From contig CBDEFV010000004.1 in assembly GCA_965237735.1 (NCBI GenBank), positions 1,006-65,005 of the forward strand: a stretch of DNA of 64,000 nucleotides, read 5' to 3'. Made by a program: the position numbers and the translations under genes. The stretch's first letter is position 1. Each line of letters starts with the position of its first letter. The notes beneath the pieces were generated by a model. The model had not been told where the DNA came from. It saw only the letters and a list, made by a program, of their open reading frames with translations, and ran no database searches. This DNA comes from Candidatus Porifericomitales bacterium. GTDB taxonomy: Bacteria > Pseudomonadota > Gammaproteobacteria > CBDEFV01. Below, in pieces: positions 6,240 to 11,944 of this stretch.

Positions 6240-7230
6240 TCAACCGCCGACCAGTGCCTGGGCCTGGACATCGGCGTGGTAGGACGAGCGCACCATGGGG
6301 CCGCTCGCCACTTGCCGGAAGCCGAGTCTGCGGGCGGTCTCCCCGAGCTCATCGAACTCCTCGGGAGAGGCGTAGCGGCGCACCGGCAGATGGCCGGGGC
6401 CAGGCCTCAGATACTGGCCAAGGGTGAGCATGGCGACGCCGTACCGGCGCAGGTCGCCGCATGACCTCTTCGACTTCGGCACCCTCCTCGCCGAGACCCA
6501 GCATAAGGCCCGACTTGGTAGGCACGGCGGGGAAGCGCCGACGGTGCTGCTGCAACAGTTTCAGCGAATGGAAGTAATCGGCCCCCGGGCGCACAGCCCG
6601 GTAGAGGCGCGGCACGGTTTCGAGATTGTGGTTGAAAACATCGGCCGGGGCCTGAGCCAAAGATTCGAGCGCGGACTCCATACGACCACGGAAGTCCGGC
6701 GTCAGAATCTCGATTTTCAGCTCCGGCGAGGCCGCCCGCATCTGTTGTACACAAGCGGCAAAATGGGAGGCGCCGCCGTCTTCAAGATCATCGCGGTCAA
6801 CCGAGGTGACGACCACATAGCGCAGGCCGAGCTCGGCGACGGCCTCGGCCAGCTGCCGCGGCTCTTCGGCGTCGAGCGGCTGGGGACGGCCGTGGGCTAC
6901 ATCGCAGAAGGGGCAACGGCGGGTGCAGATGTCGCCCATGATCATAAAAGTGGCGACTCCGTGCGAAAAGCACTCCCCGAGGTTGGGGCAGGCGGCCTCT
7001 TCACAGACGGAGCTGAGCCCCCGTTGGCGCAGCAGCTGTTTGACCCGCATGACCTCGGGCCCCGCCGGCAGTGGAGCGCGGATCCACCTGGGCTTGGCCG
7101 GGGACTCGACGCTGAAATCGACGGTCACGGGGATGCGCGCAAGCTTGGCGGCACCGCGCAGGTGGCCAAGGGGGTCGCGGCGGGAAGGCGCGACCAGGGC
7201 TGACTGCGGTGTTGCGGTAAAGGAATTCAT
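6240..7230 (-). CDS. lipA: Lipoyl synthase (one apparent +1 frameshift near 6459)
   Basis: [12 protein letters not shown] and CTRRCPFC motifs; the C-terminus LTLGQYLRP...VRSSYHA continues in another frame (6240..6482). Confidence 0.93.
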
Positions 7231-7237
7231 GCAGGTT

Positions 7238-7921
7238 TCAGGAAGAGAGACGAAGGCCGAGCTGACGACTGAGGTGCTGCATCAGGGCATTTTCAATCTC
7301 GCCCCATGAGGGAGGCGGGATCCAGTCGCTGAGGCGGGTAACCCTGAGACCGGGAAAACCGCAGGGATCGATGGCGGCAAAGGGTGCGAGATCGACGTCG
7401 ACATTGAGGGCCAGGCCGTGAAAGGAGCGGCCGCGGGAGATGCGGAGACCGAGGGAGGCCATTTTGGCCCCCTCGACGTAAATGCCCGGACCGGGGCTAC
7501 CGGCCGAAGCTGTCAGAGAAAAATCGGCCAGCAGATCGACGACGGCCTGCTCCAGTGTCCCGACCAAGCGGCGCGGACCGAGGCCGAGGCGCGCCAGATC
7601 GACAAGGACATAGAGAATCATCTGCCCCGGACCATGATAGGTGATTTGGCCGCCGCGGTCGCTGCGAATGACGGGAATGCCCTCTATTGTCGAAGGCATC
7701 GGCGAATGCCGCCGCCGGCTTGCCACCGCCAGGCCCAAGGTATAAACCGGCTCGTGCTGCAGCAGCCAGAACTCATCGCAGCCGCCCTCAAGGGTTTTCT
7801 GCTGCATGCCGCGCCACACCCGCTCGTAGGGGCGGATCCCGAAGCGGCGCACGGCCACGGGTCCGGGGCGCTCCTCCGGCGACGGTAGCGGCAAGGGGAC
7901 GGCCTCAGGCGACAAAGCCAT
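7238..7921 (-). CDS. lipB: Octanoyltransferase LipB
   Basis: [39 protein letters not shown] motifs. Confidence 0.95.
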
Positions 7922-7931
7922 CAGAAAGAGG

Positions 7932-8291
7932 TCATCTCGAGTTTCCGCTGAATTCTTCCAAGCCCTGACGGCCGAGGCGGCGGAAAAAGCAGCTGCGCCG
8001 ATTTCTGTGGCAGGCATGGCCGTGCTGACGCACCTGCAGCAGCAGCGAGGCGTTGTCGTCGGCGACGCCCAGCTGCAGAAGCTGCTGGCGGTTGCCGGAC
8101 TGCTCGCCCTTGACCCAGAGTTGCCGGCGCGAGCGCGACCAATAGCAGACAGAGCTGGTCTCGCCCTGTTGTTCAAGGGATTCACGGCTCATCCATGCCT
8201 GCATGAGGACATCGCCATTTTCCCTGTCCTGGGCAACGGCCGGCAGCAGGCCGTTGCGATCGAAGCGCAGCTGCCCGAGCAGATGGTGCAT
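7932..8291 (-). CDS. hisI: Phosphoribosyl-AMP cyclohydrolase domain B: keeps SRSR/KGEQSG and ACH...SCF, lacks DCDxD. The frame is open upstream to 8519
   Basis: GLLPAVAQD, YWSRSRRQLWVKGEQSGN, ACHRNRRSCFF. Confidence 0.88.
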   Translation of the reverse strand: MHHLLGQLRFDRNGLLPAVAQDRENGDVLMQAWMSRESLEQQGETSSVCYWSRSRRQLWVKGEQSGNRQQLLQLGVADDNASLLLQVRQHGHACHRNRRSCFFRRLGRQGLEEFSGNSR

Positions 8292-8464
8292 CAGCGCCCG
8301 CGACCGGGAAGCCGGAGCTTTGTCCCGGACTGCAGTTTTTGCGGGCAGGGTCTTGGGAAGGGCGCTGTCGGCGGTGGCGAACTCGACCGGGTGCCGCTGG
8401 TAAGAGCTCGGCAAAACCGCCCTGTCCCGATCGGGCTCCACACTCCGCTCCCGGCCCTCCTGCC

Positions 8465-8821
8465 TCAGCTGTTCCCCATCCCGTCCGGCAAGGGGGGGAG
8501 CAGTGTCAGAATCAGGCAATCGCCGTCGCAGTCGAGGCGTACATCGACGATTCTGACTCCGCTGCCAAAGGACACAGGCGCGGAATCGCCCAGGCCGAAG
8601 CCGACAAAACCACCGCCTTCGAGCTGTCTGCGCAGCATGGGAAGATCGAGCCAGCAGAGAGTCAGCACCCTGGTCGTAAGGGCATCCTGGGCAATGGCGA
8701 GGATCTGGCCTCTGTCATTGAGCTTCAGCTGTCCCTCGAGCGCGTCCAAGGCGGCTTTCGGCGGCAGCTCGCAGGAGGGGCGGCTTTCTCGCTCCAGGGA
8801 ATCAGGGGAAAGGATAGGCAT
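8465..8821 (-). CDS. Degenerate HisI-like domain A: keeps DCDGD, lacks SRSR/KGE and ACH...SCF. May be fused to domain B across the G7 run at 8492-8498
   Basis: LKLNDRGQILAIAQD...VL and IVDVRLDCDGDCLILTL align with the HisI fold. Confidence 0.75.
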   Translation of the reverse strand: MPILSPDSLERESRPSCELPPKAALDALEGQLKLNDRGQILAIAQDALTTRVLTLCWLDLPMLRRQLEGGGFVGFGLGDSAPVSFGSGVRIVDVRLDCDGDCLILTLLPPLPDGMGNS

Positions 8822-8988
8822 GACTGGGATCCGGGGTTCGGGGGCAGGCCAGAGGGCTGCAGGCCGAGTCTGACCGCACAGTCATGCGGGCATGACTGAA
8901 GCAATTGTCGACAGACTCTTATTCTAGCAAAGCCGCGGCGACTTTGCCACCGTGCCCAGGTCAGTTGGCGGCGGAGGCCGGGGGAGTT

Positions 8989-10454
8989 TCAGTCGGGTTC
9001 GCCGGGGGCCGCCAGGGCCTGGCGCAGGGCATCGCCGAGAGCGCGGGCATCGGCTCCTCTGCCGGCCTCGGCCAGGGCGCGGCCGACGAGAAAACCAAAA
9101 ACTTTCGTCTTGCCTGAGCGGTACTCCCCGACTTGCCGGGGGTTGCCGGCCAGGACGCGCTGCGCCAGTTCGGCGAGATCGCCGGCATCGGCCCTGTCGG
9201 CAAAGCCTGAGGCGGCGATGAGAGCGTCTATGTCCTTGTCGCTGCCGCCCTCCCCCCACAACTGCTCAAGCAACTGCTTGCCCTGGGCGTGGGACAGGGC
9301 GCCGCCGGCCACCCGCGCCACCAGCTGACCCAAGGCTTCCGGGGCCAGGGGCGCGTCTTTCAGCTCGAGGCCATGGCGGCGGACCCTCCCCATGACTTCG
9401 GTCAGCAGCCAGTTGGCGACAAGGCGGCCGCGGCCGTCGGCAGCCTCGGTGGCGCGATCAAAAAATCGGCGCGGGCCGGATCCGACAGCAGGGCATCGCA
9501 CTCCTCGGCCCTCAGGCCGAAATCGCTGCCGTAACGGCGGCGGCGGGCGGCGGGAAGCTCAGGCAGGGAGGCGCGCTCCTCTTCGATCATGCCGGCATCG
9601 AGAATCAGGGGTGGCAGGTCGGGGTCGGGAAAGTAGCGGTAGTCCTCGGCATCCTCCTTGGCCCGCATGGGACGGGTCTCGCCGGTTTTCTCGGCAAAGA
9701 GCCGCGTCTCCTGCACGACTCTGCCGCCTCCTGAGAGAATCTCCTGCTGGCGCCTGATCTCAAAGTCGAGGGCGCGCTCGAGGAAGCGGAAGGAGTTGAG
9801 GTTCTTGATCTCGGCGCGGATGCCGAGCTCCTCAGAACCCCTGGGCCGCAGCGAGATGTTGGCGTCAAAGCGCAGGTTGCCCTTTTCCATGTCGCCGTCG
9901 CAGATGGCCAGATGGATGGCGAGGGTGTGGATTTCGCGGGCGCAGGCCACGGCTTCTGACGGGCTGCGCAGATCGGGCTCGGACACCACCTCCAGCAGAG
10001 GGACGCCGGCGCGGTTCAGGTCGATGCGGCTGTCGGCGCCCACATGCACGGATTTGCCGGCATCCTCCTCGAGGTGGGCCCGCGTCAGGCGGATACGGCG
10101 CTCCTCAGCGTCTGCCGCGGCCGGCAGATCGATGCCGCCGCCGACAAGGATGGGATCCCTGTGCTGCGAGATCTGGTAACCCTTGGGCAGGTCGGGGTAA
10201 AAGTAGTTCTTGCGGGCGAAGATCGACCGCGGCCGAATCTCGGCGCCGACGGCGAGGCCGAAGCGCACCGCCATGGCCAGGGCCCGGGCGTTGACCACCG
10301 GCAGGGCGCCGGGCATGGCCAGATCGACGGGGTTTGCCTGGCAGTTGGCGTCGGAGCCAAAGGCCGTCGGGGAGGTGGAAAACATCTTGCTGTCGGTGGC
10401 GAGTTGGACGTGCACCTCCAGACCGATCACCGCCTCGTAGCCGCGGGCGCTCAT
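8989..10454 (-). CDS. gatB: Asp/Glu-tRNA amidotransferase subunit B (apparent frameshift in the A6 run near 9462)
   Basis: IGLEVHVQL, RKNYFYPDLPKGYQISQ, DYRYFPDPDL; Yqey-like tail in 8989..9501. Confidence 0.95.
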
Positions 10455-11944
10455 GCGACGGCGGCCGGCGGCGGCGAGGGCTTCCAGCCGCTGTGGCGCT
10501 GGTAGCGGTGGGCGGCCGCAAGCAGACGGGCCTCGCTGAAGGCCGGGGCCAGCAGCTGCATGGAGACCGGCAGGCCGGAGGCGAAGCCGCAGGGAATGGC
10601 CATGGCCGGCAGGCCTGCGAGGTTGGCGGCAGTGGTGTATAGATCGACGAGATACATGGCGACGGGGTCCTGTTCATGGCTGCCGCGGGCAAAAGCCGTC
10701 GACGGAGCCGTCGGCAGAAACAGCAGGTCGGCGGTTGCAAAGAGATCGTCGAAGCGGTTGGCGACGGCGCGCCGGACGCGGCAGGCGCGGTCGTAATAAG
10801 CGTCGTAATAGCCGCTGGAGAGCACATGGGAACCGATGAGAATGCGCCGCTCGACCTCCAGGCCAAAGCCCTCGGCGCGAGAGAGCTCATAGAGGTCCTC
10901 GATCGAATTGGCCCGGCAGGAGCGATGGCCGTAGCGGACGCCGTCGTAGCGCGCCAAGTTGGAGGAGGCCTCGGCCGAGGAGATGATGTAATAGGCCGGT
11001 ACCGCCTGGCGCAGGGCAGATGCCAGCTCGACCTCGACGAGATCGGCGCCGAGCAGGCGCCGGCAGCTCTCCAGGGCCTCGCGCAGCAGCGGGGCGACCC
11101 GGCCCTCAACTTCGTCGAAGAGATGGGGATCAAAGGCCAGGCGCAGCCCCTCCAGAGGGGCGTCCAAGTGCCTGGCGAAGTCCTCTGCGGGCCGCAGGAG
11201 GCTGGTGGCGTCAGAGGCATCAAAACCAGCCAGGGCGTTGAGCATGAGGGCGCAGTCCTGCGCCGTCCAGGCCAGGGGTCCGGCCTGGTCCAGGCTCGAG
11301 GCGAAAGCCACCATGCCAAAGCGCGAAATTCGCCCGTAAGTGGGTTTGAGGCCGGTGATGCCATTGAAGCCGGCCGGCAGGCGAATCGAGCCGCCGGTGT
11401 CGCTGGCCGTCGCCGCCGGCACAAGGCCGGCGGCAACGGCCACAGCCGAGCCGCCAGAGGAGCCGCCGGCGACGCGACCCGCATCCCAGGGGTTGACCGC
11501 AGGGCCAAAATAGCTGTTCTCGTTGGCCGATCCCATGGCGAACTCATCCATGTTGGTCTTGCCGATGAAAACGGCGCCGGCATCGAACAGGCGGGCAACC
11601 ACGGTGGCGTCGTATTCGGGCACGAAGTCAGCCAGCATGCGCGAGGCGCAGGTCGTCCTGAGGCCGCGGGTGCAGAACAGGTCCTTGTGGGCGATGGGGA
11701 TTCCCGTAAGCGGCGTCGCGTGGCCGCGGGCCCGGCGCTCATCGGCAGCCAGCGCCCGCTGCCGCGCCCCCTCGGGATCGAGGGTGATGAAGGCGTTGAG
11801 TTTGGGGTTGGCCTTTTCGGCGCGGTCGAGGGCGGCTTCGGTCAACTCGAGACTGCTGCAGCGGCCGGCGGCAAGGTCTGCCGTCAGGCTGGCGACGGTC
11901 TCGCGGCCCCAGTCGACCGCCGTCCTCGAGGCAGGGGCGCTCAA
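10451..11944 (-). CDS. gatA: Asp/Glu-tRNA amidotransferase subunit A
   Basis: Amidase signature GGSSGGS, SDTGGSIR, SSNLARYDG. Confidence 0.97.
   Translation of the reverse strand: MSAPASRTAVDWGRETVASLTADLAAGRCSSLELTEAALDRAEKANPKLNAFITLDPEGARQRALAADERRARGHATPLTGIPIAHKDLFCTRGLRTTCASRMLADFVPEYDATVVARLFDAGAVFIGKTNMDEFAMGSANENSYFGPAVNPWDAGRVAGGSSGGSAVAVAAGLVPAATASDTGGSIRLPAGFNGITGLKPTYGRISRFGMVAFASSLDQAGPLAWTAQDCALMLNALAGFDASDATSLLRPAEDFARHLDAPLEGLRLAFDPHLFDEVEGRVAPLLREALESCRRLLGADLVEVELASALRQAVPAYYIISSAEASSNLARYDGVRYGHRSCRANSIEDLYELSRAEGFGLEVERRILIGSHVLSSGYYDAYYDRACRVRRAVANRFDDLFATADLLFLPTAPSTAFARGSHEQDPVAMYLVDLYTTAANLAGLPAMAIPCGFASGLPVSMQLLAPAFSEARLLAAAHRYQRHSGWKPSPPPAAVA

Follow-up and report, generated by a model that had tools for sequence, protein, structure and literature searches.

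The stretch of DNA analysed here (64,000 nucleotides, termed the window) carries on its minus strand, at 7932-8821, two PRA-CH (HisI) domains in tandem, as seen by ORF reading and profile searches. The two domains, A and B, are fused in one conserved gene and retain complementary halves of the HisI motif set. The product is probably a single-chain pseudo-dimer with one composite active site that serves as the only PRA-CH of the organism, the division of the gene into two ORFs in the assembly being an assembly error. The enzyme HisI, small and universal, acts in histidine biosynthesis and ordinarily has two active sites, each drawn from both subunits.

Organization of the locus and its orthologs

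As assembled, the locus reads as two minus-strand ORFs that lie in different frames and overlap by 55 nt, one of 118 aa that holds domain A (8465-8821) and one of 195 aa that holds the linker and domain B (7932-8519). If the homopolymer at 8492-8498 consists of eight G and not seven, a single ORF of ~296 codons spans 7932..8821, from an ATG at 8819-8821, the same aligned Met at which the fused orthologs begin, to a TGA at 7932-7934. From the N-terminus, this gene encodes a short arm (aa 1-24) followed by domain A (aa ~25-108; together 8492..8821), an interdomain linker of ~67 aa that is predicted to be disordered (8292..8491) and domain B (119 aa from its Met; 7935..8291). Upstream on the same strand lie gatA and gatB, and downstream lipB followed by lipA, with the ATG of lipB (7919-7921) placed 10 nt beyond the TGA of the tandem gene.

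The position of that TGA is occupied by Leu in three orthologs, and the eight codons that follow it (PLSDGFVA, then a TGA at 7905-7907) still resemble the tail of the orthologs, LPSFDGFFT; the old tail of the gene overlapped the start of lipB. The TGA has the appearance of a premature stop of recent origin, by which a low-confidence tail is trimmed, and no contig of the three public sequencing runs compared with the window differs from it across 7905-7934.

A protein search with domain B identified four metagenomic orthologs of 306, 322, 305 and 262 aa at 62-80% identity, which gives a family of five sequences in all. Each of the four is a single ORF that carries both domains with the same complementary pattern of motifs, and two PF01502 stretches are recognized in three of them; for one, P0001, the scores reach 104.9 bits against Pfam and 161.8 bits against NF000768, in two stretches each. 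Identity among the four fused orthologs is 63-85% for domain A, 73-86% for domain B and 17-66% for the linker, and given that A is nearly as conserved as B, domain A is under a constraint comparable to that on domain B.

Outside this set the architecture is scarce. A profile of the fused protein, run against 1.84 billion representatives of 50%-identity clusters, returned one full-length member, P0001, at 625 bits; the next match, at 137 bits, is a canonical HisI and the remaining matches score no higher than 137 bits. Among the best 150 of 7226 matches the sole other protein with two stretches was P0122 (298 aa), which was rejected as an instance of the same architecture, being a HisIE in which an internal segment is repeated almost identically, with both copies intact. 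The repeated segment begins at EGRTVFWSRSR and extends as far as the PRA-CH domain does; it reflects either misassembly or an internal duplication of very recent date. In contig scans for the patterns DVRLDCDG and G[DE]VLMQAW, the fused locus was not found in the best 80 of 274 relatives from genome contigs (one genome for each of 185,579 species) nor in the best 80 of 212 relatives from metagenome contigs (241 million records), the retained matches, of 288-510 nt, holding one domain each. In 40 genomes of the same class, likewise, domain A finds single-domain HisI only; none of the genomes compared with that of the window is a nearer relative than class. In one of these genomes, G011, two separate hisI-like matches lie ~200 kb apart on one contig (C61:303906-304169 and C61:101209-101427) and may represent an unfused paralog pair. 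Among the papers listed by literature searches, none was relevant to tandem or duplicated HisI. We rate the family as rare and confined to a small deep lineage.

Complementary motifs in the two domains

Domain B is a near-canonical PRA-CH domain with substrate-binding motifs, general base and two zinc cysteines. It scores 91.2 bits against Pfam PRA-CH PF01502 (cut-off 27) and, when read from its internal Met, 129.8 bits against the NCBIfam HisI equivalog NF000768 (cut-off 126), and it shares 47% identity with 1zps, an archaeal HisI of solved structure. VIA-align of the full model gave Z-scores of 16.6-18.9 to 1zps, 7bgm, 7bgn, 6j2l and 6j22, in alignments that cover domain B only (model residues 176-306). 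The phosphate- and adenine-binding motifs SRSR (8127-8138) and WvKGEqSG (8094-8117) occupy conserved columns at 8094..8138, as does ACHRNRRSCF at 7986..8015, which contains two zinc ligands, Cys94 and Cys101, and the general base His95. In place of DCDxD, domain B has ADDNA at 8049..8063 (Ala77, Asp78, Asp79, Asn80 and Ala81 in P0002 numbering), as identified by direct reading and by alignment to 1zps, and ADDN(A/V) is found here in all five members of the family.

Domain A is a degenerate PRA-CH fold that lacks the substrate-binding motifs and the C-terminal zinc loop, the domain ending directly after the strand that follows DCDGD. The two halves of the protein are only ~34% identical over 44 aa, and domain A falls below the cut-offs of both family models, with 12.6 bits and an E-value of 0.13 against Pfam PRA-CH (cut-off 27) and 29.3 bits against NF000768 (cut-off 126), where the match nevertheless has an E-value of 5e-7 and extends over profile positions 11-94. 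Searched against 40 other genomes of the same class, domain A matched canonical HisI genes in 20, at 27-37% identity and with E-values down to 1.3e-9; counting the genome of the window itself the tally is 21 of 41, one unpublished genome (G039) included, which enters no other result given here. When a profile of the five A sequences was aligned with a profile of 45 canonical HisI sequences, hhalign gave a probability of 98.3% and an E-value of 1.2e-14, with DCDGD placed on DCDGD. A fold predicted for domain A alone is of low confidence (pLDDT 62, pTM 0.49), because of which its top Foldseek matches, all to HisI structures (6j2l, 1zps, 6j22 and 7bgn; E-values of 2e-4 to 1e-3, TM-scores of 0.42-0.49), give weak support. 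The reading of the window from its letters alone (the sequence-only reading) had described two HisI-fold domains in tandem, a description that is upheld for B by Pfam and NF000768 and for A by the alignment of HisI profiles; that alignment, together with the NF000768 match, also means that domain A does match a PRA-CH profile, the failure of which that reading had named as grounds for giving up its proposal.

To examine the complementarity of the domains, five A and five B domains were scored at 40 columns, namely those with a conservation of 90% or more among the 45 canonical HisI sequences. Domain B loses only T83 and the D, the C and the last D of DCDxD, which become A, D and A/V, in all five sequences, and in all five it keeps YWSRSR, W-K-G, S-G, Q and G..ACH..RSCF. 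Domain A keeps ten columns in 5/5 sequences, among them all four of D-C-D-x-D, and in every one YWSRSR, W, K, G, S and Q are missing together with the entire G..ACH..RSCF segment. SRS(R) and WxKGExS are thus present in B and absent from A throughout the five sequences. Three of the four columns lost by B fall within the ten kept by A (hypergeometric P = 0.042), although the functional identity of these three overlapping columns matters more than the P-value. The same pattern had been noted from the window, namely an A domain with DCDGD but stripped of SRSR, WxKGExSG and ACH..SCF, and a B domain with these motifs but with ADDNA for DCDxD, and the column table extends it to the whole family.

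The retained motif of domain A, DCDGDC at 8516..8533 (Asp97, Cys98, Asp99, Gly100, Asp101 and Cys102), is invariant in the five members. The last of these residues, Cys102 (8516-8518), is a departure of its own, as canonical HisI has Ala or Thr at this position. In the model of the A and B complex described below, A:Cys102 is predicted to touch B:Cys101 and B:Phe102, for which packing or service as an extra metal ligand are candidate roles.

A proposed composite active site

According to the passages of PMC8102479 that deal with the metal sites of MtHISN2, the PRA-CH domain of this enzyme has two sites and exists as an obligate dimer. Its catalytic zinc (MBS5) is bound by Cys126 of one chain and by Cys142 and Cys149 of the other, together with His143, which is the general base; section 10 of the same paper assigns the binding of phosphoribosyl groups to SRS100-102 and W107-S113. 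These passages place a second metal, probably Mg2+ (MBS3), at Asp125, Asp127 and Asp129*, and the chain labels they give are Asp125, Asp127 and Asp129* for this site and Cys126*, Cys142 and Cys149 for the zinc site. The sequence-only reading had relied on the premise that the HisI zinc site takes cysteines from both subunits, and this is confirmed for MtHISN2 by that account; PMC10242683 makes no statement on the dimer or on the cysteine geometry.

Transferred to the tandem protein by alignment, the zinc-site set of three cysteines and a general-base histidine is complete only across the two domains, with Cys98 supplied by A and Cys94, His95 and Cys101 by B, and is full in neither. The aspartates of DCDxD are divided otherwise, with all three present in A and one of three in B. 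It is proposed that A:Cys98 is the third zinc ligand and that DCDGDC provides an intact Asp triad.

Structure prediction is consistent with this proposal. In the model of the fused ortholog P0001 (pTM 0.76) both domains have a pLDDT above 90 and the linker (residues 127-165) falls below 50. A two-chain model was also built from domain B of the window and residues 1-110 of A, with Zn and Mg riding along, as the sequence-only reading had suggested with Zn. The predicted complex had an ipSAE of 0.90 in three of three runs against 0.24 for the best control, in a setting where the alignments and the riding ligands depart from the calibration of the tool, and in which that mark was attained for 116 of 157 solved complexes and for 2 of 215 mismatched pairs. 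Contact agreement between runs was at least 86% and the pLDDT of the partner at least 80. The contacts of lowest predicted error include those of B:Cys101 with A:Cys98 and A:Asp97 and of B:Phe102 with A:Leu96 and A:Asp97, and B residues 94-96 and 101-111 lie within the predicted interface with A. Because HisI homodimers have already been solved, the pass is to be read as likeness to the HisI dimer and not as a demonstration of binding.

From these observations the following arrangement is suggested. One gene would produce a protein of ~296 residues in which two HisI domains, joined by a floppy linker, pack within the chain in the manner of the subunits of an ordinary HisI homodimer. Of the two interface sites of that dimer, one would have been erased and the other kept, as the mirror-image site is expected to be gone because the zinc loop of A and the cysteine of B are missing. 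Domain B would contribute substrate binding through SRSR and WxKGExSG, the general base His95 and the zinc ligands Cys94 and Cys101; domain A would contribute the third zinc ligand Cys98 and the intact Asp97/99/101 motif, and would otherwise act as a structural partner. A tandem duplication followed by complementary loss is the likely origin. Catalysis at this composite zinc site, and the count of exactly one active site that had been put forward from the window, would both follow from the motifs and the predicted pairing.

It is possible that domain B is a whole enzyme that homodimerises between chains, with Asp78 in the role of the missing cysteine ligand, and that domain A is a structural or regulatory appendage. 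Aspartate can bind zinc, Asp78 and Asp79 are invariant in the five sequences, and B keeps 35 of the 40 conserved columns and passes the HisI equivalog cut-off unaided. However, this arrangement is unlikely for several reasons: it leaves unexplained why D-C-D-G-D of domain A is invariant when every other catalytic motif of the domain has been lost and why A is as conserved as B, each motif of a B:B dimer would be left with a single Mg-site aspartate out of three, and the A+B model sets A:Cys98 at B:Cys101.

The second metal site fits the pairing of A with B less simply. When the chain labels given in the metal-site passages of PMC8102479 are applied to the tandem protein, the Mg triad of the live site would consist of B:Ala77, B:Asp79 and A:Asp101, that is, of two carboxylates and not three; A:Asp97 and A:Asp99, both invariant, would fall to the erased site, each cross-interface triad being made of two Asp and one Ala. 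There are three possibilities for the missing carboxylate: the chains are mislabelled, two nearby Mg sites share residues, or the metal centre has been remodelled. As to the last, the metal centre may have been remodelled in three respects: Ala has entered the Mg triad, and two residues are newly invariant, Asp78 of B, which stands where the cysteine was, and Cys102 of A.

Probable role in histidine biosynthesis

Within the 2.27-Mb genome, which is 97% complete, PF01502 matches nowhere but at the tandem locus, which makes this gene the sole PRA-CH there; an intact canonical hisI elsewhere, the presence of which would have spoken for neutral decay of the two domains according to the sequence-only reading, was not found in this genome. 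The genome also holds hisG (HisG), hisE (PRA-PH), hisA and hisF (two His_biosynth genes), hisB (IGPD) and hisD (Histidinol_dh), scattered over contigs. Given the sole PF01502 locus and the presence of the other his genes, we infer that the tandem protein is the PRA-CH of the organism and would convert PR-AMP to ProFAR (EC 3.5.4.19).

Alternatively, the protein may make no ProFAR at all, and be instead a diverged member of the PRA-CH fold that acts on another substrate or is non-catalytic, with histidine taken up by the cell or the step carried out by an unrelated enzyme. Neither domain has an ordinary metal motif, one Mg-site carboxylate is missing, and the gene sits beside gatA/gatB and lipB/lipA rather than among his genes. 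This scenario is nonetheless improbable, given that one site retains all of its residues for substrate binding and catalysis and that no other PRA-CH was found in the genome; moreover, the other his genes searched for are all present and scattered, so that a lack of his clustering is the rule in this genome. A role as the PRA-CH of the pathway is the better account of the gene.

The frame break

The split of the gene into two ORFs is a one-base assembly indel in a G run. The run at 8492..8498 is G7 in the window (C7 on the coding strand) and marks the frame break. The contigs of three public runs (X1, X2 and X3) were compared with the window over 6300-10500 (4.2 kb). Run X2 (depth 44.7), which covers the whole 4.2 kb in one contig and which may be the source of the window itself, so that it tests the quality of the assembly and is not an independent strain, has a G added after 8491 to give G8; run X3 (depth 3.6) has the same addition, and run X1 (depth 3.9, from the same sample as X3) keeps G7. 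No base substitutions relative to the window were reported in the contigs of the three runs across 6300-10500. With G8 the frame reads ...DCDGDCLILTLLPP-LAGRDGEQ... over ~296 codons, and the frame upstream of B is conserved as protein, the linker aligning with those of the orthologs (ERGxEPD..AVLPSSY..DKAPAS).

The neighbouring genes tell the same story. Both lipA (6349-7230, minus strand) and gatB (8989-10454, minus strand) are frameshifted in the window as assembled, and both are restored in all three runs, by removal of one base at 6457 in lipA and by addition of an A to an A6 run after 9459 in gatB. Given that the other frameshifts within the 4.2 kb are corrected in all three runs, the assembly is indel-prone here; homopolymers (G7 and A6) account for two of the three positions affected. 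At about one indel per 1.4 kb, other split genes of this genome are equally suspect. Owing to the homopolymer error, an annotation pipeline would split the locus into a pair of genes and label one of these 'hypothetical'.

Were G7 real, domains A and B would be separate polypeptides that form an obligate heterodimer, or would be joined by -1 ribosomal frameshifting or by transcriptional slippage on C7. The window and the low-depth X1 contig both have G7, the ORFs share those 55 nt, and C7 is a slippery sequence. Such an arrangement is very unlikely, however, given the G8 of X2 and X3, the correction of the two other frameshifts of the window in all three runs and the plain fused ORFs of the four orthologs; in addition, domain B would need a TTG or an internal Met as its start, and a conserved linker would be left untranslated. 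The locus was considered as a programmed -1 frameshift gene and rejected as such, G8 being present in two of the three run contigs and all four orthologs reading in one frame. The sequence-only reading had foreseen that one extra C in the C7 run would join the domains and had offered an assembly indel or a -1 frameshift site as the cause, together with a choice between a single-chain pseudo-dimer and an obligate heterodimer. The indel and the single chain are the parts that stand, on the G8 contigs and the fused orthologs, and neither the frameshift site nor a heterodimer of separate subunits is required.

That the locus is a decaying duplicate beside a damaged hisI, in a pathway that is being lost, has next to no probability: three neighbouring genes are indeed frameshifted in the window as assembled, but these frameshifts are assembly errors, five sequences, down to 63% identity, conserve the architecture along with both sets of motifs, and the histidine pathway is otherwise complete.

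Comparison with known systems

The closest relative in structure is the canonical HisI homodimer, as solved for M. thermoautotrophicum (1ZPS), for MtHISN2 (7BGM/7BGN) and within HisIE of S. flexneri (6J22/6J2L), whose fold is common to both tandem domains. In the metal-site passages of PMC8102479 the zinc site likewise lies across a two-domain interface, with one DCD cysteine, two C-terminal cysteines and a histidine. The tandem protein differs in being one chain and not two, in having one of the symmetric sites erased and in the resulting prediction of one site per two domains. Fusions that involve hisI are familiar from the bifunctional HisIE, HISN2 and HIS4 proteins, as treated in the hisI passages of Fani et al. 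2007 (PMC1963479), and to this extent the tandem gene resembles them. Those proteins, however, join hisI to hisE or hisD, whereas here hisI is joined to its own copy and hisE is a separate gene elsewhere in the genome; the word 'tandem' is absent from the text of that review, and no hisI-hisI fusion is listed in the hisI passages compared here.

The principle of duplication and fusion with a redistribution of the motifs of a site is known elsewhere. In the monomeric dUTPase of herpesviruses (EBV; Tarbouriech et al. 2005, as summarized in a passage of PMC8961515), an oligomer has been duplicated and fused and its motifs redistributed, which leaves a single active site per chain. The tandem HisI would be comparable by analogy, in that the parent sites of both are built from motifs of different subunits; the fold and chemistry of the dUTPase are unrelated, its parent is a trimer and not a dimer, and it is a viral and not a core biosynthetic enzyme. 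Zinc deaminases provide a second point of comparison, in a different fold from that of HisI. In the C-terminal domain of E. coli cytidine deaminase and in ADAT2/ADAT3, a duplicated zinc-hydrolase domain has lost catalysis and is kept as an obligate structural partner. We know of no dead deaminase domain that donates a metal ligand to the live site, unlike the role proposed for A:Cys98.

It is fairly likely that this deep-branching lineage has exchanged the symmetric HisI homodimer for an asymmetric single-chain enzyme, through a duplication-fusion after which complementary losses erased one of the interface sites and left domain A as a scaffold that donates a zinc cysteine and, with it, aspartates. 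If this is true, it would be a clean case, legible in the sequence, of duplication, fusion and complementary degeneration, by the same route as has been proposed for the monomeric herpesvirus dUTPase and the pseudo-catalytic domains of deaminases. The protein would also be a ready-made asymmetric construct with which to ask whether each site of HisI depends on the other. It would reveal which subunit gives which metal ligand, an assignment that becomes possible since a single mutation would no longer alter two sites simultaneously, and it would test how much of the Mg triad is dispensable. The tandem protein would, in addition, be the first HisI from nature in which two domains share one site.
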